A DNA stretch of 64,000 bases from a virus (lineage: Duplodnaviria; Heunggongvirae; Uroviricota; Caudoviricetes), in IMG/VR virus record IMGVR_UViG_3300037400_001691, positions 1-64,000 of that record; one strand, written 5' to 3'. The position numbers and the translations under genes were made by a program. Positions 10,875-64,000 of the stretch are shown here, piece by piece. A model generated the notes under the pieces. That model had not been told where the DNA came from. It saw only the letters and a program-made list of their open reading frames with translations, and did not search any database. Position 1 is the stretch's first letter; every line of letters begins with the position of its first letter.

Positions 10875-10876
10875 CT

Positions 10877-11098: not shown

Positions 11099-11100
11099 TT

Positions 11101-11961: not shown

Positions 11962-12192
11962 ATGACTAAAAAAGATATATTAAGAGGAGCAGGAATACTC
12001 AGAAAGGAGCAACCTTGCTTAAGGAAAGGACAAGCAGTTTTTAATTATGTAGATATGCATCCAGAACTTTTCAAAAATGCTGCACGTATATCTCAGTTTA
12101 ATTATGGAATTGATTGTTTCTATAATGATGATATAATTGATCAATTTATTGATCAAGTTCTTGAAATATTAAACAATGATTTTATAGACTAA
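11962..12192 (+). CDS. hypothetical protein (76 aa)
   Basis: ORF with no recognisable motif. Confidence 0.45.
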   Translation: MTKKDILRGAGILRKEQPCLRKGQAVFNYVDMHPELFKNAARISQFNYGIDCFYNDDIIDQFIDQVLEILNNDFID

Positions 12193-12319
12193 TGTTATGA
12201 CCTTTGGACAAGCAATAGAAGAACTTATTCAAAACGAGAAATTTCGACATTTGTTTTCTCCTAAATTATATTATAATTATCTTATTGGTGATTGAAATAT
12301 ATTAAATAATTTTCAATAA

Positions 12320-12394
12320 AAGACGCATGATGACCAAGTGGCTATGGTGACAGGTAACGTTCCCAACGATGGTTCGAATCCATCCTTGCGTCTT
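12320..12394 (+). ncRNA. tRNA-like element: 8-bp terminal stem AAGACGCA/TGCGTCTT, D-arm-like CCA-AGTGGCTA-TGG and canonical T-arm GATGG-TTCGAAT-CCATC, but no canonical anticodon arm
   Basis: Hand fold. Confidence 0.35.
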
Positions 12395-12954
12395 AATTTG
12401 GGGGTATTTGGATTTGATTGCTAAGAGAAGCAAAGAAATCACGCAAAGGCAGTTGGAAAGACAACAAATAAAATTTAAACGGAAATAACACAGTTACATT
12501 CCGTATCGCTGCTTAATTGAATTAGATTAAGTACGATACCCGGGAAACACAGGATACTTACCGAGGAACAGAAATAGTATTCATCGCTGGCATCGGCAGT
12601 AATTAAACGAGCAAAAGTTTTATTAGTTTTCACAAAACTAATTGGTGGAGCTAACATTCAGTTAGCCTAAAGAAGAAAACTTTTAAAAATTGAAAAGCGT
12701 GTACAAATTTCGATGATATTTTAGTAAGACGAGGGTTTAATAGTTGGACCAGCTATAAAGTGATTTATAGTTAAAAACATCGGATGAATTCAGGGAACGC
12801 TAAAAAATAAAGCTCAAGATAAGCTTTATTTCATGCTAATCCTGAGCTAAACATAGAGTACACTCTATGAAAGTGCAACGACTATTGGAGAACTACAGTG
12901 TTCTTAATTACCAACTTGAGCGTCCGACATCTCATTAAGAGATGATGATATAGT

Positions 12955-13518
12955 CTAATCTTCTATGAAAGTAGAAGTATAGGAAGAAATCTGTTTTAAA
13001 AATTTTTTAGTTTCTAAATCAGACATTTGTTGTTTCATTAAATTAATAGGAGTTGATACAAATTGAACATTACCTTTTATGTAACCTTTAGATGAATCAA
13101 TTCTATCTAAAGATGCTCGATAAATTATATTTAAATCATTTATATTATTATCTTCTGGTAATGTTAATTTAAGATTAGTATAAGGACATATTCCATTTTG
13201 TTGTTCCCATATTAATTTTAAATATTCTAAATCTATATTTATTTCTTTAGATCTACGTTTTATACATCTCATTGTATATCTAAAAGGACTAAATTCATCT
13301 CTTCTATTTCCAGAATGTTGTGAAATATCATATTTATCATTTGATAATGATAAATTTTTATTAGATTTTCCAGAACAAATTCTAGAACAATAATTTTTTC
13401 TTCCTAATTTAACATTTCTATTATATTCGGAAAGTGGTTTTTGAAATTCTTTACCACAACAATCACAAATTAATGTGATTAATTTTCGATTTTTACAATA
13501 ATCTTTTAAAATTTCCAT
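12955..13518 (-). CDS. HNH homing endonuclease (Zn-finger N-terminus, SLDRIDSSKGYIKGNVQFV HNH motif)
   Basis: Minus-strand ORF of 187 aa with CxxC pairs and the HNH signature. Confidence 0.65.
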   Translation of the reverse strand: MEILKDYCKNRKLITLICDCCGKEFQKPLSEYNRNVKLGRKNYCSRICSGKSNKNLSLSNDKYDISQHSGNRRDEFSPFRYTMRCIKRRSKEINIDLEYLKLIWEQQNGICPYTNLKLTLPEDNNINDLNIIYRASLDRIDSSKGYIKGNVQFVSTPINLMKQQMSDLETKKFLKQISSYTSTFIED

Positions 13519-13737
13519 AATTTTTTATTTTATTTAATATATGTATATATAAGAAATTTATGTGGATACTTATAATTTTTATTGTTAATAAATGTTAATT
13601 TTGCGACTCCCTCTACCTCCACAAGAAAACGATAATTATCTATAATGTTTAATTTTTAATTACGGACGTAAGGAGCGTCCTTCTTAAATTACATATAATT
13701 ACCATCAAATTATCGTTTTCTTTTTAATTTAAAAATT

Positions 13738-13953
13738 ATGTTAGATATTTTATCATTTATCGCAATGGCATTATCATTGCTTGGAAACATTCTTTTAGTA
13801 AAGAAAATCATTTGGGTATTCCCAATTTGGATTATAGCGAATGTAACATGGATTGTTGTGAATTTTATGAGTACTCCTAATATTTCACAAATAATTATGT
13901 TTGTAGTTTATACCATACTTGCTATGATAAGTTGGTATCAATGGAAAAAATAA
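13738..13953 (+). CDS. small membrane protein (2 TM)
   Basis: Hydrophobic ORF. Confidence 0.45.
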   Translation: MLDILSFIAMALSLLGNILLVKKIIWVFPIWIIANVTWIVVNFMSTPNISQIIMFVVYTILAMISWYQWKK

Positions 13954-14035
13954 AAATAATGCTCCCATAGTCAATTAGATACTTATAAATCTAAAAATAA
14001 AAACGGAGATAAATCTTATTATCGTTATCACAAAT

Positions 14036-14119
14036 GGGAGGTGGGCAGGGTTGAATAATGCACCGGTCTTCTAAACCGGAGTCTTTTAGACATGATGGGT
14101 TTGAATCCCATACCTCCTA
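14036..14119 (+). tRNA. class-II (Ser-like) tRNA with anticodon loop CTTCTAA, reading UCU
   Basis: Acceptor GGGAGGT/ACCTCCT. Anticodon stem CCGGT/ACCGG is perfect and almost identical to the E. coli tRNA-Ser anticodon arm. Variable hairpin GTCT-TTT-AGAC. T-arm ATGGG-TTTGAAT-CCCAT. Confidence 0.5.
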
Positions 14120-14297
14120 CATTTTTATTGATGTAGGTTCGATTCCTACTGGGAGTACTATTTTAGGTAGTGATTTAACATTTATTAACAAATTTGTTGA
14201 TTTACATCAATTTAAATTTTTTTGAAAATAAAAATCAAATTATTATATTTGATTAGAAATTTTAGATAAACAGTTTATTAATTAAAAATTTAAAAAA

Positions 14298-14473
14298 ATG
14301 AAAAAGTTGTTATTTGCATTTGTTATGTGCATGAGTATTGTACTTGTAAGTTGCGGTTCTGGCGCAGTAACATCAGTAAGTGATAATGATTCTATCGACA
14401 CAGTATCTTATGATACTATTGATACCATTGTTCTTGATACAGTGGGTGTTGATACAACCATTTGTATTGATTA
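14298..14473 (+). CDS. small lipoprotein (58 aa)
   Basis: Signal peptide with lipobox MKKLLFAFVMCMSIVLVSCGSG. Confidence 0.45.
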
Positions 14474-14643
14474 ATTTATTAAAAGAAAGGATTTATTATG
14501 AAGAAATTGTGTAATCTAGTGAAAGCAGGAATTAAATTTTATGGAAGAAATCTCAAAAACTTTACGAAGTTAATCGTTATTCCTGAAGGAGCTTGCTATG
14601 CACAGTAATTCCTGTACAATGGTAGTTTAATACTACCAACAAT

Positions 14644-14712
14644 GTCCCATGGTGTAATGGTAGCACATCAGATTTTGGTTCTGACGGTCAAGGTTCGAAT
14701 CCTTGTGGGACA
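14644..14712 (+). tRNA. tRNA-Gln(UUG)
   Basis: Acceptor GTCCCAT/GTGGGAC. Anticodon stem TCAGA/TCTGA with loop TTTTGGT. T-arm AAGG-TTCGAAT-CCTT. Confidence 0.55.
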
Positions 14713-14862
14713 ACAATTAACTTTTAAAAAGAAAGGAGTTTAATTATGAAAAAAATCAAAGCTTTATTTATTAGTGCTATTACTATCGCTGCTTGCATGT
14801 ATTCATTTTACATCGTAGCATAGTAATGCTTTTTTAATCGAATTTTATTAACTTTAAATATA

Positions 14863-24805: not shown

Positions 24806-25961
24806 TTCCAAAATAAAATTTTTGTTTGAAATTTTGAAACTTGTTAAATTAGTTATATTATTAATTTAACAGTTAAAATTATGGATATAGAAAAATTGGC
24901 ATTTGAATTTCAAACAACTAGTATTTCTCTTACTAAATTAGCAGAAAGAGAACATACAGCAAGACAAACTCTTGCAAAAAAATTTAAAGAATTAGGTATT
25001 GAGATAATTAATAAACAAAATAAAACTAAATTTAATGAACATATCTTTGATTCTATAGATACAGAGAAAAAAGCATACTGGTTAGGTTTTATTTTTGCTG
25101 ATGGAAGTATTAGAGAACAAATTGAAGGTAAAAAAGTTCCTTATACTTTTGAATTAAGTTTAAAAGGAGATGATATAGAACATCTTAAAAAATTTAATTC
25201 ATTTATGGAATATCAAGGAGATAATGTTAAATTAGGAAAAAGTAAATGCAAAAATAAAGAGTTTTCTAGATGTAGATGGACTATTACAAATAAACATTTA
25301 TGGACTATTCTTAACAATTTAGGTTGCACATCTAATAAATCTTTAACATTACAATTTCCTAATGAATCAATATTTAGTTCAAAAGATTTAATTCCACACT
25401 TTATTAAAGGTTATTTTGATGGTGATGGATGTTTTACACGTCATGTATATACACATATTGTTAGTCCTGTTATTTCTATATTAGGAACTCCAGAATTTTT
25501 AGATAAAATTGACGAATATTCTAATATAGAATCTATAAGACGACATGACAAAAGACATTCTGAAAAAACTTATATTTTAGAATTTAATAAAGAAAATGGA
25601 ATTAAATTTATTAATTATATTTATTCTAATTGTAATATATATTTAGATAGGAAATATAAATTATATAATTTTTTTAAAAACGGAAGCCGTTCTGTAGAGG
25701 AATTTACAGAATTACAATCGGGCAATATCGGGGAAAAGCTGAAGCTTGAGTCGAGAGACTATATGTATGAAAATCCCGAGATAAACTTAGAAACTAAAGA
25801 ATCTGAGTCATCGTACAGCGTAGGAGGTGAAACTGTATAACAGACTATAATCCTTCCAAGAGTGTCCGATACCCCAACTGAAATAAGTGGGTAAAAAGGT
25901 ACGCGGGGCTTACTTGTAATAAGTAAGAAATACGAATAAAAAATCGTATGATAACAATCCG
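24806..25961 (+). mobile_element. group I intron in helicase gene, carrying LAGLIDADG endonuclease ORF
   Basis: The exon ends in U and the intron ends in G. The in-frame read-through hits a stop. The host Walker A motif is split precisely. The 3' core shares blocks with the dut intron. Confidence 0.65.
24881..25840 (+). CDS. LAGLIDADG homing endonuclease (intron-encoded)
   Basis: Two LAGLIDADG motifs: YWLGFIFADGSI and KGYFDGDGCF. Confidence 0.75.
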   Translation: MDIEKLAFEFQTTSISLTKLAEREHTARQTLAKKFKELGIEIINKQNKTKFNEHIFDSIDTEKKAYWLGFIFADGSIREQIEGKKVPYTFELSLKGDDIEHLKKFNSFMEYQGDNVKLGKSKCKNKEFSRCRWTITNKHLWTILNNLGCTSNKSLTLQFPNESIFSSKDLIPHFIKGYFDGDGCFTRHVYTHIVSPVISILGTPEFLDKIDEYSNIESIRRHDKRHSEKTYILEFNKENGIKFINYIYSNCNIYLDRKYKLYNFFKNGSRSVEEFTELQSGNIGEKLKLESRDYMYENPEINLETKESESSYSVGGETV

Positions 25962-27131
25962 AAAACTCGAGTTGGAACAAACTTGATAGGTAAAATACTA
26001 AAGCGTAAACCCCAATATAGAATTTTAGTAGTTGTTCCTACCACTACTCTTAAAGAACAATGGGAAGAAATCCTTGATTCATTAGGATACGGATTCAACT
26101 GTTCTGTAGAAGTAATTAACACTATTGTATTAAAAGATACAAAATATATTTGTGATTTTTTAATTTTGGATGAAATTCATAGATTTGCGTCTGATTTATT
26201 TCAACAAGTGTTCAATAGAGTTAATTATTCTCTGATTTTAGGACTTACTGCAACTATTGAAAGACTTGACGGAAAAGAAATTATCATTAAACAATATTGT
26301 CCTGTATGTGATGAAATCACATTAGAGGAATGTATGATTAATGGTTGGATTTCCGATTATAAGGAATATCAAGTACTAATAGAAGTAGATAACATACAAG
26401 AATATAAAGATTTAAATAGACAATTTAATGAACATTTTGGATTCTTTAACTATGATTTTGGATTAGTTATGAATATGGTTGGTCCAAAAGGATATTTGGC
26501 TCGTATTGCATATCGAGATCAATTATGTCCAAATGGTACAAAAGAAGAAAAATCCGCAGTTCTTAAATCTATTATCTATCATTCGACTGCTTTCATGAGA
26601 GCATTACAAGGTAGAAAATCTTTTATTAATAATCATCCTAAGAAAATTGAAATTGCTAGAAAAATAATTGATGCACGTCCAGATGCTAAAATTATTACTT
26701 TTTCTAATAATATAAAGATGGCTGAGGCTATTGGAATTGGAAAAGTATATAGTGGTAAAGACACTAAAAAGAAAGGTCGTGCAACATTAGAAGAATTACA
26801 ATCTGGTGACATTCGTGTTATAAACACAATTGCTAAAGCAAATGAAGGTCTTAATATTCCAGATTTATCTATAGCAGTAATGCTTGGAATTGATTCTTCT
26901 AAAATAAAAGCAGTTCAAAGAGTAGGTAGAGTATGTAGAGCGCAAGAAAATAAACAGGCTGAAATCTTTAATCTTGTTATTAATGATACAGCGGAACTAG
27001 AATGGTTCAAAAGAGCTCACGCTAAATCTCAATATACAACAATTGACGAACAAGGTTTAGAAGCGGTTCTTAATTATGAAGAACCTAAACCGTATAAAAA
27101 GAAAATACCAAAATTAACTTTTAGATTTTAA
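25962..27131 (+). CDS. SF2 (DExH) helicase, exon 2
   Basis: Begins KTRVGTNLIGKILKRKPQYRILVVVPTTTLKEQW and contains the LDEIHR DExH box. Confidence 0.7.
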   Translation, partial: KTRVGTNLIGKILKRKPQYRILVVVPTTTLKEQWEEILDSLGYGFNCSVEVINTIVLKDTKYICDFLILDEIHRFASDLFQQVFNRVNYSLILGLTATIERLDGKEIIIKQYCPVCDEITLEECMINGWISDYKEYQVLIEVDNIQEYKDLNRQFNEHFGFFNYDFGLVMNMVGPKGYLARIAYRDQLCPNGTKEEKSAVLKSIIYHSTAFMRALQGRKSFINNHPKKIEIARKIIDARPDAKIITFSNNIKMAEAIGIGKVYSGKDTKKKGRATLEELQSGDIRVINTIAKANEGLNIPDLSIAVMLGIDSSKIKAVQRVGRVCRAQENKQAEIFNLVINDTAELEWFKRAHAKSQYTTIDEQGLEAVLNYEEPKPYKKKIPKLTFRF

Positions 27132-29106: not shown

Positions 29107-30496
29107 CTTTTAAGAAATTTTAACATTTAATTTTACCATTATTAAAATAAAATTCGTATATTTGTATTATTAATTATTAACTATTAACTATTAAAATAAT
29201 ACAAACATGAAACGAGTTTATAAAATTTTAACTAAATTACACAAAACTGCTGGAATTTATATTATTTCCTGCACAAAAACAGATAAAGTATATATTGGAG
29301 AAAGTTTAAATGTTAGTGGGAGAATTTTAAAACATTTTACTAATCTTAGAAAGAATATGCATCATAATCCTATACTTCAAGCTATATTTAATAAGTATGG
29401 AGAAGAAACAATGATAGTAGATGTTTTAGAATGGATTAATTCTGATGATATACATCAACTAGATTTTCTTTTAAGAAAGAAAGAAGTTGAATATCAAAAA
29501 AAGTTTGAACATTGTATCAATTTTGATAAAAATGGATACGCATGGAAATTAAATGCAACAGAAGAACAAAAAGAAGCAAATCGTAAACAATTAGACTCTA
29601 TTAGAGAAGCAGCGATGAATGCTTGCAAAACTCCTTTAGTTATATATAATATTAAAACTAAAGAAAAAATAGAAGTAGATAGTTTACAAGAAGCGGAAAA
29701 TTATATTGAGCAAAAACATATTTATCGAAATATAAAAGATAAAGTGTATTTACCATATAATAATTATGTAGCATTTCTTCCAGAAGAGTATAATCCTACA
29801 CTAATTTTAAACACATCTTGTATGTCTAATGCTAGTATATCTGAAGTATATAAGTTATATAATTTAAAAACTGGGGAAGCTTTAAGTTTTCCAAGTAAAT
29901 CTCAATTTGCCATATATTTAACAGGTAAAAGGAATGATAAATTATATGATAGATATACTACATTTATAGATGATAATTTTTTAACTGCAATGCAAATTAC
30001 TTCTATAGAAGATTTTTGGAATGCTCCTTTTGTATATAATAGAAATTCTAGAAGTATAAAAACTTGTATTCTAAAAGATTATTATCAGGCATTACTGAAT
30101 TACAAGACTGATATTGAATTATCTAATATTTTAGGTTGTGAAAGAAGATTAATTCCAGTTTTATTTAAAAATAAATCCTTAGCAGACAGGATTAATGAAA
30201 TTACAGAAACCGCAGGCCACTTTAACAAATCTGTTTAAAATTGGGAAGCTTTAATTCTAATTATTGTGAAATAATTATAAGGTAATCAATTACGAACTAT
30301 ATGAATAGCATAAAAGTAATATAGACGTTTAACGACTAGTAGATAAATAGCTAAATTGATTCTACCACGAAATACAGACATTTTATAAATTGTATGTGAA
30401 TATAAGATATAAAGTGAAGAGATAGTCTAAACTGCATATTAAAGAATATAAATTGCAGAGTTTAGGATAAAGAGCCTAGAGTTAATTACAAAAATG
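29107..30496 (+). mobile_element. group I intron in ATPase gene, carrying GIY-YIG endonuclease ORF
   Basis: Exon 1 ends in U (GGT) and the intron ends in G, the G of the ATG at 30494-6. The P-loop is split exactly. Confidence 0.6.
29207..30238 (+). CDS. GIY-YIG homing endonuclease (intron-encoded)
   Basis: Contains GIYIISCTKTDKVYIGESLNVSGRILKHF...NKYGEE. Confidence 0.75.
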   Translation: MKRVYKILTKLHKTAGIYIISCTKTDKVYIGESLNVSGRILKHFTNLRKNMHHNPILQAIFNKYGEETMIVDVLEWINSDDIHQLDFLLRKKEVEYQKKFEHCINFDKNGYAWKLNATEEQKEANRKQLDSIREAAMNACKTPLVIYNIKTKEKIEVDSLQEAENYIEQKHIYRNIKDKVYLPYNNYVAFLPEEYNPTLILNTSCMSNASISEVYKLYNLKTGEALSFPSKSQFAIYLTGKRNDKLYDRYTTFIDDNFLTAMQITSIEDFWNAPFVYNRNSRSIKTCILKDYYQALLNYKTDIELSNILGCERRLIPVLFKNKSLADRINEITETAGHFNKSV

Positions 30497-30943
30497 AGCG
30501 GTAAAACTACAAGTATAAGAAACCTTAATCCAGAAGAGACCTTCATAATCTCAACCACTGGAAAACGTCCTGGTACAAAGGGCGCAAAGAAGAAATATCC
30601 AACTTTTGGAGTTGATCCAGAAACAAAGGAACTTCACGGAAATTTCTTCACAGCATCTAACGTTGATAATATCGGTAAGATGCTAAAAGTAATTAATACT
30701 AAACTTCCTAATATCAAAACAGTCATTATTGACGATTATCAGTATGTAATGGGTTTTGAAGCAATGGATCGTGCAGGAGACAAAGGCTTTGACAAATTTA
30801 CTCAAATGGCTCAACATGCTTATCAGGTAATCAAAGATGCCATGAATCTCCGCGATGATTTATATGTTGTTATTCTTACTCATAGTGAAAATACTGGTGA
30901 CAAAATGAATCCATATTATAAGATTAAGACTCAAGGTAAATAA
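30497..30943 (+). CDS. Sak4-like P-loop ATPase, exon 2
   Basis: Begins SGKTTSIRNL. Walker B VIIDDYQY. Confidence 0.6.
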   Translation, partial: SGKTTSIRNLNPEETFIISTTGKRPGTKGAKKKYPTFGVDPETKELHGNFFTASNVDNIGKMLKVINTKLPNIKTVIIDDYQYVMGFEAMDRAGDKGFDKFTQMAQHAYQVIKDAMNLRDDLYVVILTHSENTGDKMNPYYKIKTQGK

Positions 30944-31327
30944 TATTTTGCCAGTATAACCCCTAATTCGGCGAAATCTGAAGCACAAGTCGTGAGATTA
31001 ACTGTATGACAATGCCGAGCCAAGCAAAAATAGAATTCTAGACTATTTTGGGCGCGTGTATCGACTAGTAGCGGATCGGCTACGTAAAAATTGAAGTAAT
31101 TAATCAATTTTGAAATGGGGATGTAAATTTTATATATTTTAATTTGAGGTAAATTTAAACAAAAATTAACTAGAAAACTTTTAATCATAAAATAAATGAT
31201 GTAAAAGGGTTTAAATTTATTAAATATAAAGAATTTGTGAATACATAGTCAGTTCCCGTAGAAATACGGTAGGCATAAATTTGATAGTAATTATATCAAA
31301 TAAAAAATTTATGTAATTTTAACGAAA

Positions 31328-39719: not shown

Positions 39720-40889
39720 ATGGAAATAAAAGTAATTAATAAATGCGGAATTTTAGAAGATTTTGATCCACAGCGTATTGCTGTAGCAATTAGAAAAAGT
39801 GCAAGTAGAGTATTTGTGGATCTCACCGACGAAGATTGTGAAAAAGTATCAGATTGGGTATATTCTCATTTAACTGAGAACATTCCAGTTAAAACTCTTC
39901 ATAATTTAGTCGAATGTGCATTAGATGAATGTAATTTTAAAAGAGTAGCAGAATCTTATCGTGCTTTCCGAAATTATAAATCTGACATTAAAGAAATTTG
40001 GGAAGCAGTACAATTAAAAGAAATTGAATTAGATTCTCAGCCAGATCATTCTAATGCTAATTGTAATTCACAGTTAGTATCTACTAAAGGTATTCTTACT
40101 TATGGAGAATTTCTTAAAGAATCTTATATGAGATTCTTTTTAACTCCAGAAGAAAGAAAAGCTGTTAAGGAAGGGTTTATTTATCCTCATGATATGAAGG
40201 ATAGATATAGAACATATAATTGTTGTCTATTAAATGTCGGTCGTATTATGAAAGGTGGATTTACCCTTGAAAATATGCCTTATACAGAACCTGGAAGTGT
40301 AGCTGCTGCGATAGCAGTTGCATCTGATATTATAAGTGTTACTGCTGGAAATCAATATGGTGGTCTTACTTGGCCTCAAGTTGATGAGGATTTATCTTAT
40401 TACTGTCAGAAATCATATAATTTCTATATTAAAGAATATAGTCATATTATAGAAGATGCTGGCTGTACTGTAGATCCTCGTAAAGCAGATGCTTATGCTT
40501 ATAGAAAAGTAAAACGTGAAATTCAACAAGGTTATCAAGGAATTGAACATACCTTTAATAGTGTATCATCTTGTAGAGGTGATTTTCCATTCATTTCATT
40601 TAGTTTTGGTAACGGAACTGATAGATGGTCTAAACTTGTAAGTACAACTATCTTAGAAACAAGAATGGGTGGTCAAGGAAAACCAGGTGGTAAAACTCCT
40701 GTATTATTCCCTAAACTTATCTTTACTTATAGAGATGAAATTCACGGAGAAGGTGGTATTTCCGAAGATTTATTTGACTTAGCTGCTAAGTGTTCTAAAG
40801 ATACTATGTATCCTGATTTCTTAAGTCTTGATGCTGGTTATGTAGGACAAATGTATAAGAAAACAGGTAAGATTATCACTATGATGGGT
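39720..40889 (+). CDS. nrdD: anaerobic ribonucleoside-triphosphate reductase NrdD, exon 1
   Basis: N-terminal ATP-cone. The exon ends ...KIITMMG, immediately before the conserved active-site CRA(C/F)LSP. Confidence 0.75.
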
Positions 40890-41732
40890 AAGCGTAAACT
40901 ATAGCTCATCTAAAACCTTTTGAACCGTTATTCGCGGGTGTCTAGAAATAGGCTAACGGTTAGGTCCTATAAATAATAGGATGAGACCGTGCTAAATTTA
41001 TTATATATGTTTTTAAAAATAATGTAATATGTGGATATATAAAATAGTAAATGATATTAATAATAAAATTTATATCGGGCAAAGTAAATATCCAATTGAG
41101 CAACGTTTTTAGAGACATAAAAATGATTGTTTATGATTAGATACACATCTTGCTCGTGCATTTAAAAAATATGGAATAGAGCATTTCAAAATAGAAATAG
41201 TAGAAGAAGGAATTGAAGATCCAAATTTATTAACAGAAAGGGAATCATATTGGATTAAACATTATGATTCAATAAAGAATGGATATAATGAAACTGATGC
41301 TGCTGTACGTTCTGGAGGAAATACTTATCAAAGTAAAACAGAAGAAGAAATGCTTATAATCAAAGATAAAATTAGATAGACTAAATTAGGAGGAAAAAAT
41401 CCTCATGCAAGAGCTGTTAAAATGATAAATATACAAACTGGAGAAGAAAAAATATTTGAAGCTATATCAGTTTGTGTAAAAGAATTAAATTTAGATCGAC
41501 ACGATCATGTATCTAAAAGATGTAGAGGAATTATTAAATCTCCTTATAAAGGGATTTATAAATTTGAATATGTAAATAATTAATAAACATATATAATAAA
41601 GAAGTGTATCGACTATCCCTGATGAATGTAAGGGAGTAGGCTTAGAGATGAATACTAAGTCGAAGCGGAAGGCTTTAAGTAATTACTTAAAGAAGATATA
41701 GTCAGTTCTTTTGGTAACAAAAGATTAAAACG
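40890..41732 (+). mobile_element. group I intron in nrdD with degenerate GIY-YIG ORF
   Basis: Exon 1 ends in U and the intron ends in G. The joined exons give ITMMG-CRACLSPDY...GVISLNLPMFYQK, matching T4 NrdD SPMGCRAFLSPWY...AISLHLPMIYQK. Confidence 0.7.
41040..41583 (+). pseudogene. GIY-YIG endonuclease (I-TevI-like) with in-frame TAG x2 and TGA x1
   Basis: Translation MWIYKIVNDINNKIYIGQS...QRF*RHKNDCL*LDTHLARAFKKYGIEHF...YWIKHYDSIKNGYN...KIR*TKLGG. Confidence 0.55.
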
Positions 41733-42716
41733 TGTAGAGCGTGTTTATCTCCTGATTATAATGAACAAGGTGAACTTCTTATTAATAGATGTAATATGGG
41801 TGTTATATCTCTTAACTTACCTATGTTCTATCAGAAAGCTAAGTTAGAAAACAAAACCTTCTATGAAGTATTTGATTATTACTTTGAATTAGCAAGACAA
41901 ATTAATCTTAGAACTATTGAATATTTAAAACGCAAACTTAAAGGAGCTAGTAGTCCACTTGCATTTATGGAAGGTGGATTTGACGATGGTTATCTTGGAC
42001 CAAATGATTCTGTAGCTCCTGTTCTTAAACATTCTACTATAAGTTTTGGTTATGGTGGACTTAGTGAACTACAAACTTTATATAATAAGGATCATAATAT
42101 TGAAACTCATTATTTTGAAGATTGTGATTTTGCTAAAGATGTTATGACTTACTTTAACGATAAAGTAGAAGAAATTAAGAAGGAAGACAATGTATTATAT
42201 GCGATATATGGTACTCCAGGTGAATCTTGGCTTCCAAAAGCTTGTGAACAATTTATTGCTAAATATGGAGAAGTTGACGGTGTAACCGATAAAGGTTTCT
42301 TCTCTAATTCATTCCATATTAATGTTGACGAAGACGTAACTCCAATTGAAAAAATTGATTTTGAAAATCAATTCTTCCCACTTTCTAAAGGTGGTTCAAT
42401 CTGTCACGTTAAGATTCCATCTATTGCTGATGAAATGATGCCAGGAGTTAAAGCAATAATTCGTCATGCTATGAAAATTGGTAACTATCAATCTGTAAAT
42501 CACGCATCTAATAGATGTACTGATTGTGGACACCATTGGATTGGTGATGATAGTATGCCTTATGAAGAAAATTATAGATGTCCAGTTTGTGGAAGTATGA
42601 ATACCGTAGGAACACGTAGAATGAATGGATATCTTGGATATTCTAAAACTATTCTAGGTGTAAATAAGTTCAATGATGGTAAGATTAAAGAATTTAAATT
42701 ACGTAAAAATCTATAA
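41733..42716 (+). CDS. nrdD: NrdD exon 2 (glycyl-radical domain, C-terminal Zn ribbon)
   Basis: CTDCGHHW...CPVCGS zinc ribbon and RRMNGYLGYS glycyl-radical motif. Confidence 0.75.
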   Translation, partial: CRACLSPDYNEQGELLINRCNMGVISLNLPMFYQKAKLENKTFYEVFDYYFELARQINLRTIEYLKRKLKGASSPLAFMEGGFDDGYLGPNDSVAPVLKHSTISFGYGGLSELQTLYNKDHNIETHYFEDCDFAKDVMTYFNDKVEEIKKEDNVLYAIYGTPGESWLPKACEQFIAKYGEVDGVTDKGFFSNSFHINVDEDVTPIEKIDFENQFFPLSKGGSICHVKIPSIADEMMPGVKAIIRHAMKIGNYQSVNHASNRCTDCGHHWIGDDSMPYEENYRCPVCGSMNTVGTRRMNGYLGYSKTILGVNKFNDGKIKEFKLRKNL

Positions 42717-52726: not shown

Positions 52727-52989
52727 AATTATGCGCCATAGTTTTACAACTATGAAAATTGGGTGAATTGCTGGAAGACTAAGTTGTAAAATAAAAATAT
52801 TGATTTTATAATATGTTAATCAGCAGCCAAGTCTTTAGTATACTAAAGAAAGGTTCACAGACTACCTGAGCAGTACAATCTGCTTAATGACAGGGGAATT
52901 ATTAAAAATTCTTAAAAAAGCGCCCAATAATTTTGTTTATCTAAAAATAAATTATATATTAACATCGTTATATAAAAATTTAACGATGT

Positions 52990-53985
52990 ATGAGTAAATA
53001 TAATTTAAACAAAGAACAAATTTATGATTGGTATATTAATCAAAATTTGAATCAAGACGAAATTTGTGAAAAATTAGGCGGAATACCTAAAATTACGTTA
53101 CAGAGATTTTTAAGAAAAAATGAGATAAAGAAAATAGATAGAGTAAATTATGATTTATTAGTTCCTGAAATAAGATCAAGATTAGATTTAGGAATGATAC
53201 ATAAAGAAATTGCTGAAGATTTAGGTTTAACTATTGATAAAGTTAGAAAAATAATTTATCAAAAAATAAATCCTAATGATAATCCAAAGTATTCAAATAA
53301 ATTATTAGACGATTCGTGGATTAACGAAAATAATTTAATTTTTTGGTATATAGTTGGATTAATAAGTTCAGACGGTCATATTGATAAAAATAATTGTATT
53401 AATATATTTCAATCTAATTTTGAATATTTAAAAATGATCCAAAAAATAATAAATCATCCTGGAAAATTATACAAAAAAGAAGATTCTGATTGTTATACAC
53501 TAATTATTAATAGTGAAAAATTATATAAAATATTATCTGAAAAATATAATATTAATTGTGATAAAAGATATTCAGTTCCTTTTATAAATCCTCCTAAAGA
53601 ATTAATTAATCATTATATAAGAGGAATATTTGATGGAGATGGATGTTTATATTATAGATATATTTCAGGGATATTTGAAGGAAAACGTTGGCAAATAACT
53701 ACAGGATCTAAATTTATGGCAGAAGGTTTAAAAGAATGTATTAAAAAAGAATTGAATATAGATCTAACAATACATTGTAAAAAATCTATTGCTGATAATA
53801 ATTATTATGATATAATATGTAATGATACTGAATCATTATTAAAATTATGTCAATATATGTATAATAATTCAAATAAACTTTATTTAAATAGAAAATTTAA
53901 AAGCTATATTAAACTTAAAAATCTTATTAAATTAGATAAACAAATTAATGATATAGTCGATGCTTCTATGAAAATAGAAGAATAA
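52990..53985 (+). CDS. LAGLIDADG homing endonuclease (within polymerase-gene insertion)
   Basis: Two LAGLIDADG motifs: IVGLISSDGHI and RGIFDGDGCL. Confidence 0.75.
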   Translation: MSKYNLNKEQIYDWYINQNLNQDEICEKLGGIPKITLQRFLRKNEIKKIDRVNYDLLVPEIRSRLDLGMIHKEIAEDLGLTIDKVRKIIYQKINPNDNPKYSNKLLDDSWINENNLIFWYIVGLISSDGHIDKNNCINIFQSNFEYLKMIQKIINHPGKLYKKEDSDCYTLIINSEKLYKILSEKYNINCDKRYSVPFINPPKELINHYIRGIFDGDGCLYYRYISGIFEGKRWQITTGSKFMAEGLKECIKKELNIDLTIHCKKSIADNNYYDIICNDTESLLKLCQYMYNNSNKLYLNRKFKSYIKLKNLIKLDKQINDIVDASMKIEE

Positions 53986-54123
53986 CATGATAATAAAAAT
54001 GATGTTTGGGCAACTTATTTATTTTTAAGAACAACACTCGGTAAAACTGACTATTCAATTTATAAAGGAAAGAATAAAATTAAACTGAGAGAAAATCTTG
54101 GTAAGAAATTTCATGTTAATGTA

Positions 54124-55431
54124 ATGAATATGGGTGATGTTCCTATGGGAGAAGAGTTAATGCTTAACTTATATTCTCGAAAAGTAGGAATACCTCCCTA
54201 CGTTCTTAAGAAACGTGGAGGAACTCATAGACCAAATGGAATAAATTTAAAAGATTGTATTCCATATTGGTGTAAAATTGAATCTAAAGAATTTAATACT
54301 TTCCTTGATAAACTTAAAACTATGAAAATTACAGGAGCTAAAGGAGAATTTCAATATTCTGTAATATTTCATAATTATAAGTTTGATTTTGGATTAGGAG
54401 GTTCACATGGATGTTGTAACCCTAAAATATGGGAATCTAACGAAAATTGGGTAATCGTAGACTATGATATCGGGTCGCTATACCCCAGTATAAGTAAATC
54501 TCTTAAACTATATCCAGAACACCTTGGTCCTGTATTCAATGAACAATATATAGGTTTCATTGATACTCGATTAAATGAAAAACACAAACCAAAAGAACTT
54601 CGTGATAACGTCCTTATTGAAGGATATAAACTTATTCTTAATGGAACGTATGGTAAAAGTAAGGAGGAAACATCTTTCTTATATGATCCACTTTATACTT
54701 TCAAAACTACAGTAGCAGGACAATTATTTATTTGTATGTGGGCTGAACGTTGGGTTAAAGTATGTCCAGAATTAAAGTTTATCCAAACTAACACTGATGG
54801 TCAAACTATTTATATTCCACGTAAAGATATAGATAAGATACGTGCTGTTAATGAACAATTAACAAAAGAAACAGGTCTTACTATTGAAGAAGTTATCTAT
54901 AAAAAGATGATAGTGCGTGATGTAAATAACTACCTCGCAGTTTATGAGGATAACGAAAAAGAACACGAACACATTAAGCTAAAAGGTGATTATGAAGTAG
55001 ATAAGGAATATCATAAAGATCCATCTATGAGAATAGTTCCATTAGCTGTTAAAAATTATTTTGTATATGGAGTTCCTGTAGAAGAAACCATTCGAAATCA
55101 TACAGATATATTTGATTTTTGTATGAGATTGAAAACTAATTCCAAAAGTACACCTTATTTTAGACACTTCGATGATAATTATAATGTTGTAAATGATAAA
55201 CTCGATAGAACAACACGATATTATATTTCTAATAGAGGTGGAAACTTATATAAGGACTTTAATGGAAAACAAGTAGGTGTAAATATAGGATTTTCAGTTA
55301 CATTATTTAACAAATATGTTAAAAAAGATATGAAAGACTATGATATTAATTATAGATTTTATATCATTGAAGCTAAAAAGTTAATAACTTCAATAGAAAC
55401 AAAACAATTATCATTATTTGATTTATTTTAA
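54124..55431 (+). CDS. family-B DNA polymerase, C-terminal polymerase portion (the ORF is open upstream to about 53986, so the true exon start is upstream of the ATG)
   Basis: Motif A DYDIGSLYPSI, motif B KLILNGTYGKS and a motif-C-like IQTNTDGQTIY. The protein is compact, of phi29-like size. Confidence 0.6.
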   Translation: MNMGDVPMGEELMLNLYSRKVGIPPYVLKKRGGTHRPNGINLKDCIPYWCKIESKEFNTFLDKLKTMKITGAKGEFQYSVIFHNYKFDFGLGGSHGCCNPKIWESNENWVIVDYDIGSLYPSISKSLKLYPEHLGPVFNEQYIGFIDTRLNEKHKPKELRDNVLIEGYKLILNGTYGKSKEETSFLYDPLYTFKTTVAGQLFICMWAERWVKVCPELKFIQTNTDGQTIYIPRKDIDKIRAVNEQLTKETGLTIEEVIYKKMIVRDVNNYLAVYEDNEKEHEHIKLKGDYEVDKEYHKDPSMRIVPLAVKNYFVYGVPVEETIRNHTDIFDFCMRLKTNSKSTPYFRHFDDNYNVVNDKLDRTTRYYISNRGGNLYKDFNGKQVGVNIGFSVTLFNKYVKKDMKDYDINYRFYIIEAKKLITSIETKQLSLFDLF

Positions 55432-55433
55432 AT

Positions 55434-55883
55434 ATGTACGAGGATTATAAAAAATACACAATTGATCATTATTGCCAAGATTATGAAGATATAATATCTA
55501 CAATTAACGGGTTTAGTGATGAAGAACTTGAAATGGTAGCAAATAATCTTCCTGAGAATTATGAATATTTAGAATATGCTATTAAAGAACAAGTAGAAGC
55601 AAGAATTATTCAAATATTATACGATAATCTTATAAAAGATTTATCTGATAAAAACTTCTATGAGTGTTTTGAAGGAGATATTATAGATTATCTTACAGGA
55701 GAAGGATTATCATATGAATCATGTGGATATTATATCAATTTAGATTATTATACAGATTGGTTTATTTCAATACTTAATAATTCTGATCACATATATGATT
55801 TTGAAGTTAATTCAGAATTAAATAAATACGAACTTGTAAACAGTTTAAATCAAGTATTTACAAATATTAAATTTTATATATAA
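55434..55883 (+). CDS. hypothetical acidic protein (149 aa)
   Basis: ORF. Confidence 0.5.
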   Translation: MYEDYKKYTIDHYCQDYEDIISTINGFSDEELEMVANNLPENYEYLEYAIKEQVEARIIQILYDNLIKDLSDKNFYECFEGDIIDYLTGEGLSYESCGYYINLDYYTDWFISILNNSDHIYDFEVNSELNKYELVNSLNQVFTNIKFYI

Positions 55884-56117
55884 TTATGGCATTTTTTACA
55901 ATAGAAAAGAATTAAGTTTTGCAGAGAGAATTGATAATGTACAGTCGATGTTTACTAATGCTTATAATAAGGCTCAATCTATTAAAGAAGACCTTGTTAA
56001 AGATAATGAAAACAAGCAAGTTCAAATCAATACTCTCAATTAAGAAATTGAAAAGAACGCAACTCTTATTACTAAAACTACAAGTTTTATGAATAAACTT
56101 AAAGACATTATTGGATA

Positions 56118-57092
56118 ATGAAAATTGTAAATCAATCATATGAAATTTTGGAACAAGAGATTCCAGTTCATAAATTAGACGATTATTCTGGTTATCATTT
56201 CAGAGAACAATATCTTGAAAATATGTATAAACATATCGAAAGATGTGGAAGAACTTGTTATAAATCTGAAGATAGAATAACTCCAGATAGTTCTAAAAAG
56301 TTTGTAGATGGACTTATTAAATCTAAACATTTAAGTGTTCTTGAACATGGAACTATTTATTTAGAATATATTTTTAATCCATCAAAAGAAGATGAAAAAG
56401 AATTTTTCAAAAGATATACACTTAATCCGTATTCTAAGCTTAAAAGTAAAGCTTTAGAATATGAAGATAAATCTGTAGAAGAACAAGTAATTGGAGAAAA
56501 AATAAAAATTATTAAAGCAGCTATGTACGTAACTACTAATTTTAGAGTATTAGTAGAGAATAATTGGCTTGATGATTTACAATATCTTTGTCAACCAACT
56601 GAATATCATGATATTCGTCATACTGTACTTCTTCATTCTTGTATTCATGTTTATAAGGATTTAACTCGTCATAGACCAATGAGTTTTTCTATTGAATCTA
56701 CAAGATATTGTAATTATCTTAAAGGAAAATTTGGAAGCGAACTTAAATTTGTACGACTTCCTTGGACAAAAATTATTCCAGGTGATTACGATAGTTCTAT
56801 ACTTCAAAAACTATATGACGATGATGTAATGTCTATTGAAGACATTAATTTTATCGCATCTCTTTGTAGTATTGAAGAAACTTATATGTATCTTATTAAA
56901 GAAAAGTGGGAGCCTCAACAAGCAGCTGAAATTCTTCCACAATGTCTTGCTGCTGATGTTATAATGTCTGGATTTGAATCTGATTGGAGACACGTATTCA
57001 ATCTTCGTTCAGATATTGCAGCAACAGGCAAACCACATCCTCTTGTAGAACAATTAATGACTCCATTAAGAAAAGAAATGTTACATGAATAA
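56118..57092 (+). CDS. thyX: flavin-dependent thymidylate synthase ThyX
   Basis: Carries the ThyX signature DLTRHRPMSFSIESTRY (RHRxxSxxxxSxRY). Confidence 0.75.
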   Translation: MKIVNQSYEILEQEIPVHKLDDYSGYHFREQYLENMYKHIERCGRTCYKSEDRITPDSSKKFVDGLIKSKHLSVLEHGTIYLEYIFNPSKEDEKEFFKRYTLNPYSKLKSKALEYEDKSVEEQVIGEKIKIIKAAMYVTTNFRVLVENNWLDDLQYLCQPTEYHDIRHTVLLHSCIHVYKDLTRHRPMSFSIESTRYCNYLKGKFGSELKFVRLPWTKIIPGDYDSSILQKLYDDDVMSIEDINFIASLCSIEETYMYLIKEKWEPQQAAEILPQCLAADVIMSGFESDWRHVFNLRSDIAATGKPHPLVEQLMTPLRKEMLHE

Positions 57093-58659: not shown

Positions 58660-59140
58660 TATAAGAGAAAATAAAGATTTACTGTTAAGGTATCTGTGTA
58701 TAGCATTGCCTTATGAGGTTAAGGGTAGAGTGTATGCTGAGATTACAAATGGACAGTATGATATGAATGGGGATATGATATTTTTCGATTCTCCATTTGA
58801 CGTTATACTTGATGGTATTAATGTGTCAACCGAAGAAATTCATGTGGTTGCTATTGGTAATGAAGATACTGTTGAGTTTATAGAAATACAACAAACAGAT
58901 GGTATCCCTTATACTATAAAGGATATTAAACCCTATCTCCGTCCAATGTCAAGCATGACTGAGGAAGAAGATAAGAAATATGGTCTTTTGTGTTTTGACG
59001 TATCTTATTATGACAAAGATACCCCAAAGTGCAGTTTTAAGTTGATAAAATGGTTACTTGAAAAGCATTTTGACTTTATGAGTTTAATTCTAATGGGTCT
59101 TGCAATTGAAGTCACTGAAGAAAACAATCTTTATAAATAA
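58586..59140 (+). CDS. hypothetical protein, paralog of 62052-62468
   Basis: Shares IKPYLRPMSSMTEEE...LIKWLLEKHFDFMSLILMGLAIEVTEENNLYK with IKPYLRPLLSMTKAE...LIWLVRNHFDCFNLINQGLTIGVTKNNNPYEK in the paralog. Confidence 0.5.
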   Translation: MIMESKIHFMVLLVLNLLFVFIQNNIRENKDLLLRYLCIALPYEVKGRVYAEITNGQYDMNGDMIFFDSPFDVILDGINVSTEEIHVVAIGNEDTVEFIEIQQTDGIPYTIKDIKPYLRPMSSMTEEEDKKYGLLCFDVSYYDKDTPKCSFKLIKWLLEKHFDFMSLILMGLAIEVTEENNLYK

Positions 59141-59273
59141 TATGTCAAAAAAGATTCAAAATAAAAAAGAAAATAAATCTCAACAAATTTATTTAGGTAA
59201 TGGTCTTGCAACTATACTTAAAGAGGTTAAACCTTTGTTTGAAACAAGAGCAGATTATACTTAGCCATGTCCT

Positions 59274-59462
59274 TTGAAAAATCTTGTAGATGATGACATT
59301 ACAGCAGTATATATGTATAATGATGAGCTGTATGCAATTACTTGTGATTTGTTCGACACACCATTTGCAGAACTTTCAAGTAATATAAGAAACCAAATAA
59401 GGGAAGAGGCTATAAAGTGGTTGAAAGAACAACCTCAAACTCAAGGTAAATTTAGAGAATAA
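59274..59462 (+). CDS. hypothetical protein (62 aa)
   Basis: ORF. Confidence 0.45.
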   Translation: MKNLVDDDITAVYMYNDELYAITCDLFDTPFAELSSNIRNQIREEAIKWLKEQPQTQGKFRE

Positions 59463-61419: not shown

Positions 61420-62055
61420 ATGACTGATAATTTTAACTTATATAGAAAATTTATTACAGAAGTATACGGAGGATTACCAAATACAAACGAAAAAGGTAAT
61501 CTTGATAAATATTTTGTAATAGAATTAATGAGACGTGGAAAGGATAATCCCGATATGTCTGCTGCAAATTATCATTTCAGAAATTATTATATTTATTCTT
61601 GGAAAGATTTAGATAAGTATAAAGAAGAAATAAAGAATGTATGTACTTTACTTAGACTTCGTGCTTATTGTTCAGTTAATTATAAAATGATGTCTCAAGT
61701 AGCATTAGATGCGTTAGCTGAATCTGCTCGTAGAATTGCAGCTCGTGATTATAAGAAATTTTACAATATATTTGAAAGTTGTTCTGGAAAATATTCCGAT
61801 AAAGGAAATTCTGTATGGGTTGTAGATATTGATAAAGAAAATCTTGATTCGATTAATGTAATTAAACATTATATTAATGAAGTTAAGCCAAAGAATACAG
61901 AAAAAATTCTATTTGAAATGCCAACTAAATCAGGAATACACCTGATAACAAAAGGATTTGATTTAAAAACTTTTAACGATAATTGTAAAAATGAATTGGG
62001 ATATAAAATCGATGTAAAGAAAAATCATTTAACATTATTATACGAGAATTTATGA
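61420..62055 (+). CDS. hypothetical protein (211 aa)
   Basis: ORF. Confidence 0.55.
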   Translation: MTDNFNLYRKFITEVYGGLPNTNEKGNLDKYFVIELMRRGKDNPDMSAANYHFRNYYIYSWKDLDKYKEEIKNVCTLLRLRAYCSVNYKMMSQVALDALAESARRIAARDYKKFYNIFESCSGKYSDKGNSVWVVDIDKENLDSINVIKHYINEVKPKNTEKILFEMPTKSGIHLITKGFDLKTFNDNCKNELGYKIDVKKNHLTLLYENL

Positions 62056-62468
62056 ATGATTTATTAAATTATATTTGTATATCAGTTCCATTTGAATTGA
62101 TAGTACAATATGAAGGTGTTGATTATTATCTTGACGGTATGACTAGTTGGAATGAAGTACAATTAGCTACTATGGATTATACATCACTTAATTATACAGT
62201 TCCTTTAAATGATATTAAACCATATTTACGTCCATTATTAAGTATGACTAAAGCTGAAAATGATGATCTTTATGAATTTGGATGGCAAGCTTGTTGGACA
62301 AATGGTTCAGAAATTAGGCTTAATGAATTTGCCGGATTCAAAGAAACATATCGAAGTTTAATTTGGCTAGTTCGAAATCATTTTGATTGCTTTAATTTGA
62401 TTAATCAAGGTTTAACTATCGGAGTAACTAAAAATAATAATCCTTATGAAAAAGATAATTGTGAATAG
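62052..62468 (+). CDS. hypothetical protein, paralog of 58586-59140
   Basis: See the paired feature 58586-59140. Confidence 0.5.
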   Translation: MNDLLNYICISVPFELIVQYEGVDYYLDGMTSWNEVQLATMDYTSLNYTVPLNDIKPYLRPLLSMTKAENDDLYEFGWQACWTNGSEIRLNEFAGFKETYRSLIWLVRNHFDCFNLINQGLTIGVTKNNNPYEKDNCE

Positions 62469-62640
62469 TGCTTTATTTATTGTAGCACTAATTGGTGCAT
62501 TTTTTGCACTAATCTTATCTGGAATAATATTTATATTTACTTCTATAATTCCAGATAATGATGAATGGAAAATTGATGAAGAAGAAACTTGGTATATAAC
62601 TAGTAAGTTATTAGATTTTATAGAATCAGTTTTTAAATAG
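62446..62640 (+). CDS. small membrane protein (64 aa)
   Basis: Hydrophobic ORF. Confidence 0.45.
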   Translation: MKKIIVNSALFIVALIGAFFALILSGIIFIFTSIIPDNDEWKIDEEETWYITSKLLDFIESVFK

Positions 62641-62641
62641 T

Positions 62642-63187
62642 ATGTCAAAGAAACGTTTTAAATTGGTGGGTTTGTTACTTGGTAGTTTCGACCCACCACA
62701 TATTGGGCACATAGATGCCGCATTACAATCAATCAATCTCTTGGATGAAGTTTGATTTGTTCCAGCTTGGCAAAATCCATAGAAAGAAAAATCATCTGAT
62801 TATTGGGATCGTTATCTAATGTTAAATACATTAGTAAAGAATTATAATTTAGATGATTCTTATAGGTTTTCTGTTAGAAATATAGAATATACAGTAAAAC
62901 CTAAATATACGTATGAATTAATTGAATATCTTGTCAAACAATATTCGGATACTCAATTTTTTATTATTGGAGGGCAAGATATAGAACAAGATATTAAAAA
63001 TTGGAAAAATACTGATTACATTTTAGAAAAATGTATATTACTTCCAATTGATAGACATAGGATTAATATTTCTTCAACAGAAATACGTGAATTAATTAAA
63101 AATCATAGTAATCCTATTCCTTATATAACTCCAGCTGTTTTAGAACTTATTAAAAACAAAAATTTATATAATGAAAATAACGAATAA
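62642..63187 (+). pseudogene. nicotinate/nicotinamide-nucleotide adenylyltransferase (NadD/NMNAT family) with 1-nt frameshift plus in-frame TGA and TAG
   Basis: Frame A reads MSKKRFKLVGLLLGSFDPP. After a 1-nt shift it reads (H)IGHIDAALQSINLLDEV*FVPAWQNP*KEKSSDYWDRY... then ...NISSTEIRELIKN...LY. The TGA sits at the conserved Trp (B. subtilis LDEIWFMPNQIPPHK). Confidence 0.55.
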
Positions 63188-63656
63188 ATTTATTTACTTT
63201 TGGGGCGATTGGACTTCCAATTTCTATCCTTGTCATTTCGTAACAAAAGACAAAAAGACATTCTTTTGTACTGAACAGTATTTCATGTATATGAAAGCTA
63301 TTACTTTTGAGGATTATGAAATAGCAGAGAAAATTCTATTAGAAACAAAACCTTCTAATTGTAAGAAACTCGGAAGACAAGTAAGAAATTACGACGATAA
63401 AGTTTGGAACGAAAAACGCTATCAAGTTATGCTTGATGCAAATATGATGAAATTTTCTCAAAATCTTGATTTAAAAGACTTACTTTTGAATGATGATTTT
63501 GAAGGTAAACATTTTGTTGAAGCTTCACCTTATGACGCAATTTGGGGAATTAAATGTTCCGTAAGAGACGCTAAAGATGATAAATCTAATTGGAAAGGAT
63601 TAAATCTTTTAGGTAAAGTTTTAGATGAAGTAAGGTTAAATTTAAAAAATAAATAA
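63171..63656 (+). CDS. NADAR-domain protein (YbiA-like)
   Basis: The pattern FYFWGDWTSNFYPCHF...EQYFMYMKA...KKLGRQVRNYDDKVW...KFSQN..LKDLLL...EASPYDAIWGI matches the NADAR family. Confidence 0.6.
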   Translation: MKITNKFIYFWGDWTSNFYPCHFVTKDKKTFFCTEQYFMYMKAITFEDYEIAEKILLETKPSNCKKLGRQVRNYDDKVWNEKRYQVMLDANMMKFSQNLDLKDLLLNDDFEGKHFVEASPYDAIWGIKCSVRDAKDDKSNWKGLNLLGKVLDEVRLNLKNK

Positions 63657-63667
63657 TTACGAATTCA

Positions 63668-64000
63668 ATTCTTGATACAGATCTTTACAAATTTACAACT
63701 TCATATGCATATATGAAGAAATTTCCTGACGCTGAATGTACATTCACATTTAAGGATAGAAATAAAGTTAAACGTACACCTGAGTTTTTAAATAAGTTTA
63801 AGAAACATCTTAAAGAATATTGTGAAAATATTTGTTTAACTATCAATGAACTTAATTGGCTTTTAACTTCTCATAAGATTGACTTTATTGCTCAGTATTA
63901 TTGGGAGTGGTTATATTCATTCCGTTTTGAATATGACAAGATTAATGTATATCTTGATAAGGATGGTGTACTTTGTATGGAAGTAACTGATAAGTGTTAT
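63668..64000 (+). CDS. nicotinate/nicotinamide phosphoribosyltransferase-like, N-terminal part (continues beyond window; start codon unclear, no in-frame ATG)
   Basis: The N-terminal signature ILDTDLYKFT(T)SYAY is characteristic of PncB/NAMPT-type phosphoribosyltransferases. Confidence 0.45.
   Translation, partial: MLDTDLYKFTTSYAYMKKFPDAECTFTFKDRNKVKRTPEFLNKFKKHLKEYCENICLTINELNWLLTSHKIDFIAQYYWEWLYSFRFEYDKINVYLDKDGVLCMEVTDKCY

Follow-up and report, generated by a model that had tools for sequence, protein, structure and literature searches.

Probable recent decay, in one strain, of a phage NAD+ salvage cluster of the Preiss-Handler type beside an intact NADAR gene

Phage-encoded routes to nicotinamide adenine dinucleotide (NAD+) have been described in several forms. 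"NAD-jumbo phages" of the ruminant gut carry Preiss-Handler clusters, and Kuafu_71 has a pncB-nadD-nadE cluster (Li et al., Microbiome 2024, PMC11662467). The NARP2 system of Vibrio phage KVP40 consists of Nampt and Nmnat and counters NAD+-depleting defences (Osterman et al. 2024, bioRxiv 10.1101/2024.02.11.579819), and NARP1 (Adps and Namat) and NARP3 (PnuC and a NadR-like protein) are further phage gene pairs that restore NAD+ (PMC13464706). Here we analyze a 64,000-nt stretch of phage DNA (positions 1 to 64,000 of IMG/VR record IMGVR_UViG_3300037400_001691, referred to below as the window), the last 1.36 kb of which is occupied by NAD+ genes, all on the plus strand. These are a nadD-like nicotinate/nicotinamide mononucleotide (NaMN/NMN) adenylyltransferase gene (NMNAT; 62642-63187), a NADAR-domain gene (63171-63656), and the 5' part of a pncB-type nicotinate phosphoribosyltransferase gene (63659-64000). 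Two committed steps are hit, nadD by a pair of nonsense codons and pncB by loss of its start codon, and NADAR is untouched. The locus very probably shows an accessory pathway that the phage can do without in recent, strain-specific decay, and its loss would be either neutral or promoted by the metabolic cost of running it.

The original prediction, made from the letters alone, placed homologs of NMNAT, NADAR, and a phosphoribosyltransferase side by side on the plus strand, and profile searches against Pfam and NCBIfam with curated cut-offs bear this out. The stop-masked NMNAT matches CTP_transf_like (PF01467) with 57.3 bits (cut-off 21, E-value 2.5e-15), NADAR matches PF08719 over the full domain with 156.1 bits (cut-off 35.1, 1.2e-45), and the pncB fragment matches NAPRTase_N with 63.3 bits (cut-off 32.6, 3.6e-17). 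At these E-values all three homologies are genuine and lie well outside what chance would give.

Close relatives were collected by an exact-sequence look-up of the NADAR protein, which is indexed in identical form in 66 blocks of a public collection of assemblies. This returned ten loci (L058-L067) on longer metagenome contigs that are 93-97.5% identical to the window over the NAD region. Two metagenome contigs from JGI, found with a degenerate pattern that matches either allele, bring the total to 12 relatives with 93-98% identity. An allele-pattern scan of the GTDB genomes gave no match, an exact search of IMG/VR with the end of the window had no hit, and an exact look-up of a 138-aa protein of the window had no record. 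INPHARED phages yielded no close relative, the sole similarity being DNA matches of 75% between NADAR and Lak phages.

The relatives indicate what would lie past the end of the window. All ten loci have an uninterrupted NMNAT followed by NADAR, and the nine with a complete pncB call continue with a 395-396-aa NAPRTase, NadE, and a NUDIX protein. Of the loci that extend past NUDIX, most next encode an unannotated protein of about 274 aa (absent in L063), and an isochorismatase-family, PncA-like protein is present in all eight loci that reach far enough. The 395-aa PncB orthologue scores 369.5 bits against TIGR01514 (cut-off 269.55) and 386.6 against NF003704 (cut-off 379), and the single-domain NadE scores 158.9 bits against TIGR00552 (cut-off 63.65). 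The sole NCBIfam match of the PncA-like protein is to the nicotinamidase PncA, and it is weak (6.7e-15) and under the cut-off. pncB, nadD, and nadE occur together in all nine related contigs that reach nadE; the window itself contains only nadD and the 5' part of pncB, both damaged, with the position of nadE past 64000.

Because the gene set comprises PncA-like, PncB, NadD, and NadE proteins, the window would end inside a phage-encoded Preiss-Handler, or deamidated, NAD+ salvage cluster, an assignment drawn from family membership and gene order. The original prediction of an NAD+ cluster with an inactivated NMNAT is supported, but the route appears to run through PncB and NadE and is not NAMPT-based. 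In an intact relative, with the order nadD-like, NADAR, pncB, nadE, NUDIX, mostly an extra gene, and PncA-like, textbook pathway logic would have the PncA-like enzyme deamidate nicotinamide. PncB would then join nicotinate to phosphoribosyl pyrophosphate (PRPP) to give NaMN, the NadD-like enzyme would adenylylate NaMN to nicotinate adenine dinucleotide (NaAD), and NadE would amidate NaAD to NAD+. NADAR and NUDIX plausibly process ADP-ribose species. By analogy with described systems, a role against defences such as Thoeris, DSR, and SIR2 is plausible.

The closest match among described systems is the NAD-jumbo phage cluster. The same enzyme set is found here in phages with large, AT-rich genomes, recovered from metagenomes of animal-gut or rumen type, with pncB, nadD, and nadE clustered in the relatives, so that a system of this kind was already known (PMC11662467). 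The locus differs in that NADAR sits between nadD and pncB, in that NUDIX and PncA-like genes follow nadE in the relatives, and in the lesions of this strain, namely two nonsense codons in nadD and a pncB without a start codon. The related contigs reach 186 kb, and the jumbo status of this phage is putative. Like NARP2, the cluster encodes salvage from nicotinamide-derived precursors by a PRPP-using enzyme and an adenylyltransferase. Unlike NARP2, its phosphoribosyltransferase is the nicotinate type, PncB (TIGR01514), and not Nampt, the presence of nadE in relatives points to the deamidated route, and there are four enzymes, NadE and a deamidase included, where NARP2 has two. The likeness to NARP1 is that Namat belongs to the same phosphoribosyltransferase superfamily as PncB. 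No PRPS-like Adps or other Pribosyltran-family gene was found in the tested open reading frames (ORFs) of the window or in the 20-kb neighbourhoods of the relatives. Likewise, neither the window nor the cluster of the relatives has a PnuC or NadR gene, the only related item being an AAA_28 gene in three relatives. Assignment of the cluster to NARP1, NARP2, or NARP3 was rejected on these grounds, there being no Adps, a PncB in place of Nampt, and no PnuC or NadR.

The AAA_28 gene just mentioned encodes 176 aa (17436-17966 in L058) and lies about 7 kb downstream of the cluster in L058, L061, and L066 (3 of 10 relatives), accompanied by Metallophos and PNK3P phosphatase genes. AAA_28 is presumably the domain family of the NadR ribosylnicotinamide kinase, and a nicotinamide-riboside branch in these three relatives is possible.

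PncB homologs are present in 13 of 50,697 deposited phage records and are abundant in metagenomic contigs. Several contigs of 0.3-0.5 Mb encode homologs that are 77-87% identical to the L058 protein. In a 474-kb ENA contig (L074), the region 5112-7200 encodes a PncB that is 83% identical to the L058 orthologue (395 aa) near an isochorismatase-like gene, in a phage-like neighbourhood of many small unannotated genes. Judged by these sequences, exchange of the pncB gene among large phages is suggested.

The nadD-like gene spans 546 nt, or 182 codons including the terminal TAA, which equals the length of the intact gene in most relatives. Its product is best described as a predicted divergent NadD-like protein. 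The NadD equivalogs are its top NCBIfam matches and all fall under their cut-offs (96.5 bits against 150; 91.5 against 112.45), while the closest solved homolog is B. subtilis NadD (PDB 1kam, 6.5e-16), and the 174-position PRK08887 profile and PDB 3h05, both of the short VPA0413 subfamily, match it end to end. Like these proteins it has the HxGH and ISSTxxR motifs. As originally predicted, GSFDPPHIGH and ISSTEIRE are found in the translation, at residues 14-23 and 143-150, and both are kept in the close relatives and in most of the distant relatives sampled. Unlike bacterial NadD, the phage protein scores under every NadD equivalog cut-off and has NPWK where the bacterial enzyme has PPHK.

Within this gene, two tryptophan codons have become stops. 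The first is TGA at 62753-62755 (W38 to opal, G>A at 62755), and the second is TAG at 62780-62782 (W47 to amber, G>A at 62781); both changes are private to the window, and the codon is TGG in 12 of 12 relatives in each case. The whole NMNAT domain therefore has no uninterrupted frame in the window. In all 12 relatives the gene is uninterrupted, with a product of 180-183 aa in the ten that have gene calls. The counterpart of W38 in B. subtilis NadD is the Trp of EIWFMP, and the originally noted TGA at a conserved Trp is present. The TAG was proposed to fall at the His/Lys position of PPHK; it does align with the B. subtilis His, but in this phage clade the residue is Trp, both in the 12 close relatives and in 52 of 56 distant viral NMNATs. 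The latter are IMG/VR proteins of only 27-33% identity and were used solely for residue conservation. A 1-nt frame correction, also proposed, is not needed, as the 181 codons lie in a single frame throughout 62642-63187 and the frameshift does not exist. A C-terminal remnant persists as a 122-aa ORF from Met60 (62819-63187) that does not include the HxGH motif.

The third lesion, overlooked in the original prediction, is a private T>C at 63660 that replaces the ATG of pncB with ACG (63659-63661); the start is ATG in all 12 relatives. The pncB frame opens after a TAA at 63650 with ATA ATT ACG, and no ATG, GTG, or TTG occurs before codon 19. Initiation at ACG, ATT, or ATA would be very weak at best. 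The first ATG downstream in this frame is codon 19 (63713-63715), located after the LDTDLYK motif. The window, which has the first 114 codons of the gene, includes no functional pncB start codon.

What becomes of pncB past the window can be judged from P0259, a 377-aa JGI protein from an 87,366-nt contig. It is identical to the window PncB at 96 of 96 shared residues, including a private T58I, and is probably from the same strain. It has four private amino-acid changes and reaches the normal PncB C-terminus, so the remainder of pncB is open in what is probably this strain, and the loss of the start looks recent. The 377-aa length of the JGI call was considered as a sign of start loss and rejected, since L077 has an ATG and is still called from Met19. 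A NadE homolog search and the cluster listing gave no member on the P0259 contig. The original prediction was to fall if the NMNAT lesions were confirmed and the phosphoribosyltransferase was also broken; the lesions are real and the pncB start is lost, but the pncB frame is probably open to its C-terminus.

By comparison, the NADAR gene is intact, with a 161-aa product. Its 5' end overlaps the 3' end of NMNAT by 17 nt, and the identical product of L058 scores 150.8 bits against TIGR02464 (cut-off 73.7). As the protein is identical to a widespread allele, the sequence argues that NADAR may be kept for a function of its own.

The distribution of changes around the lesions can be read from the alignment of the window with the ten loci, in which we call a site private when the window base is seen in no relative. 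Seven private substitutions fall in 62446-64000. Four are in nadD and all of these are nonsense or missense (the two stops at 62755 and 62781, S80N at 62880, and S124T at 63012). The only one in NADAR (63308) is synonymous, and the two in pncB are the start loss at 63660 and a synonymous change at 63796. The two additional JGI contigs likewise have TGG, TGG, and ATG at the three lesion sites. The spread of changes over the genes is what would be expected for a relaxed nadD beside a constrained NADAR. A bout of G>A hypermutation behind the Trp-to-stop changes was considered and rejected, as private substitutions at 61.4-62.45 kb are ordinary, with 4 G>A of 22.

The damage extends beyond the NAD genes. 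A strain-specific nonsense mutation lies in a 95-aa gene (59139-59462), where TGG is changed to TAG at 59262-59264 relative to L060. A 77-aa gene just upstream of thyX (about 55883-56118) is broken twice relative to L058 (502-735), having lost one nucleotide from an A-run near 55905 and changed CAA to TAA at 56041. At 16-40 kb, all 35 genes of the close relative L073 map to open standard-code ORFs. Between 55 and 64 kb, several dispensable accessory genes thus appear to have decayed in a single lineage whose core genes are undamaged.

Lesions that are single-base changes in one lineage only, one of them in the 77-aa gene a homopolymer-length change typical of some platforms, could in principle be errors of sequencing or assembly in a phage whose genes are intact. 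We consider this extremely unlikely for the three lesions. All three sites recur in L068, a Logan contig (SRR12668996) from a separate assembly that matches window positions 62027-63955 (1929 nt) at 100% identity, so that an assembly error is improbable. On this contig the 122-aa NMNAT remnant is called as a gene, its only record in the public collection (1 block), and Met19 of pncB is used as the start. Furthermore, two JGI contigs from two other samples (L071 and L072) are 99.9-100% identical to the window at 26.7-28.2 kb, from which we conclude that the strain is real and recurrent, and the core genes at 16-40 kb are free of such errors.

A second alternative is that TGA and/or TAG is read as Trp by means of phage suppressor tRNAs, with NMNAT expressed, perhaps conditionally. 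The idea has some appeal, as all three in-frame stops (62753, 62780, and 59262) replace ancestral Trp codons, the phage is AT-rich and tRNA-rich with DNA weakly similar to Lak megaphages, and the window covers just a part of the genome. The code of Lak phages is an alternative one. Several results speak against it. In a simple gene map of the window, 29 genes end in TGA and 11 in TAG, and many have ATGA stop/start overlaps; among them, a 64-aa gene (62446-62640, plus strand) is terminated by a TAG that lies a single base upstream of the NMNAT start, with the same boundary called in all relatives, so that TAG is a working terminator at this very place. No suppressor tRNA was found by ARAGORN or Rfam among the 18 tRNAs of the window. 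Plus-strand ORF coverage rises only from 80% under the standard code to 82-83% under alternative codes, and the marks of a stop-recoded phage (code 4 or 15, with stop avoidance, many in-frame stops, and a suppressor tRNA) are absent from the window. We know of no single bacterial or phage code that reads both TGA and TAG as Trp. The ancestral Trp codons themselves need no special explanation, as TGG to TGA or TAG is the commonest transition route to a stop in nadD, with five TGG codons (10 sites) against six CAA, and TGG is kept in the 12 relatives. Suppression also cannot rescue the other lesions of the strain, because it explains neither the TAA and frameshift in the 77-aa gene nor the lost start of pncB.

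We therefore regard suppression as very unlikely, and the specific version in which opal and amber codons at ancestral Trp sites are read through by suppressor tRNAs encoded elsewhere in the genome as just as improbable. Were read-through real, expression of NAD+ salvage would be tied to the tRNA programme of the phage, and the strain would represent an early stage of stop-codon recoding in a single strain. Between the two options left by the original prediction, a recent pseudogene or a recoded or slippery gene, the first is favoured because the stops are private against TGG in all relatives; the second is contradicted by TGA and TAG acting as ordinary terminators, by the lack of a suppressor tRNA in the window, and by the single frame. 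Two other candidate read-through sites in the window were evaluated and rejected. At the TAG at 27345 the homologs are about 206 aa and start right after the stop, which marks a true gene boundary, and the TGA at 57523 is conserved in relatives.

With decay as the preferred reading, the question becomes whether loss was neutral or selected. Knock-outs would be favoured if the pathway were costly or harmful in the host, through a drain on PRPP and ATP, toxicity, or a host response, and we consider this sub-case of decay unlikely, although several observations are compatible with it. Of the seven private substitutions found over 1.55 kb, three are disabling and fall on two enzymes of the same pathway, and the probability of at least two nonsense changes among four substitutions in nadD is about 0.013-0.024 under neutrality. 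Additionally, overproduction of NAD+ by NARP2, likewise a consumer of PRPP, and toxicity of its operon on cloning in E. coli have been reported (bioRxiv 10.1101/2024.02.11.579819). However, the numbers are very small, hits that follow a first knock-out are neutral anyway, and unrelated small accessory genes are also broken, which fits a general relaxation of constraint. The broken allele is also rare, with the 122-aa fragment in 1 block against 66 for the shared NADAR protein.

Some points weigh against decay as we present it. Two nonsense changes among four substitutions exceed strict neutrality, for which chance and selection for loss are both possible explanations. L068 may share the sample of the window, in which case it excludes an assembler artefact more firmly than a sample-specific variant. 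The open 377-codon pncB frame, probably of the same strain, means that pncB could retain some expression, and it is formally possible that a suppressor tRNA lies in the part of the genome beyond 64 kb. Finally, the enzymatic roles, including the preference of the NadD-like protein for NaMN, are taken from family and neighbourhood.

If the two genes have decayed as proposed, translation of NadD would stop after 37 residues, and a full-length product would require suppression of two different stops nine codons apart. Re-initiation at Met60 would yield a fragment without HxGH. PncB would at best be made in trace amounts by initiation at a non-canonical codon, or would lack its N-terminus and with it LDTDLYK. 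With nadD and pncB both damaged, we infer that the phage no longer runs its own pathway and relies on the NAD+ metabolism of the host. Decay of the cluster with retention of NADAR suggests that in some hosts the pathway can be spared or comes at a cost, and that NADAR has a role apart from NAD+ synthesis.

What we see is common gene decay in a described type of cluster, and not a new genetic code or mechanism. The locus adds one phage lineage with a Preiss-Handler cluster plus NADAR, NUDIX, and PncA-like companions, with little import beyond annotation, and it shows in nature how a cluster of this type can break down in a single strain as NADAR is kept. It also gives a caution for annotation, in that where a phage is AT-rich and tRNA-rich, an in-frame TGA or TAG in place of a conserved Trp codon does not on its own point to an alternative code.

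The rest of the window, which is 64 kb of a longer genome, has a G+C content of 29% with nearly all genes on the plus strand. Genes for replication and nucleotide metabolism include RNA ligase 2, a DnaB-like helicase, a split NrdD, ThyX, and a sigma factor, and several ORFs encode homing endonucleases. The 18 tRNA genes lie at 2.5-14.7 kb. Within this cluster (2558-14714) some are unusually long for their type, namely Asn (87 nt), Met (86), Thr (84), Arg (85), and a second Tyr (86), which may contain introns or extended variable arms. Rfam at the gathering score confirms neither the Arg gene nor the Tyr gene of 86 nt. A group I catalytic intron was detected in the tRNA region at 12728-12977 (Rfam, 96 bits, E-value 1.5e-23), and the 1.5 kb around it (12193-13737) has no plus-strand ORF of at least 45 aa.

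Several genes are interrupted by insertions. A DEAD/ResIII helicase gene, continuous in L073, is split by a 1156-nt insertion (24806-25961) with a LAGLIDADG endonuclease ORF (24881-25840); as the exon frames differ, it is probably an intron rather than an intein. An AAA_24-family gene, also continuous in L073, is split twice, by a 1.39-kb insertion (29107-30496) with a GIY-YIG/NUMOD1 endonuclease ORF (29207-30238) and by a 384-nt insertion (30941-31324) with no ORF of at least 45 aa, and these two insertions are likewise probable introns. In nrdD, which encodes anaerobic ribonucleotide reductase, a spacer of about 890 nt separates 39720-40904 from 41796-42716. The spacer ORF (41137-41583) has an in-frame TAG and no start, and by eye resembles a degenerate GIY-YIG type with no Pfam match; the layout is similar to that of T4-type nrdD introns, and no Rfam intron is called there at the gathering score. 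At 52984-55431, a LAGLIDADG_3 ORF (52990-53985) lies directly upstream of, and in frame with, a 435-aa ORF without a Pfam match, a single TAA separating the two, and the pair may be a mobile-element arrangement. Finally, L071, otherwise 99.9% identical to the window, joins window position 26411 to 26706, which makes it a 294-nt deletion variant in the helicase gene (compared with window 26349-26706), with about 14 nt of shared sequence at the deletion junction.

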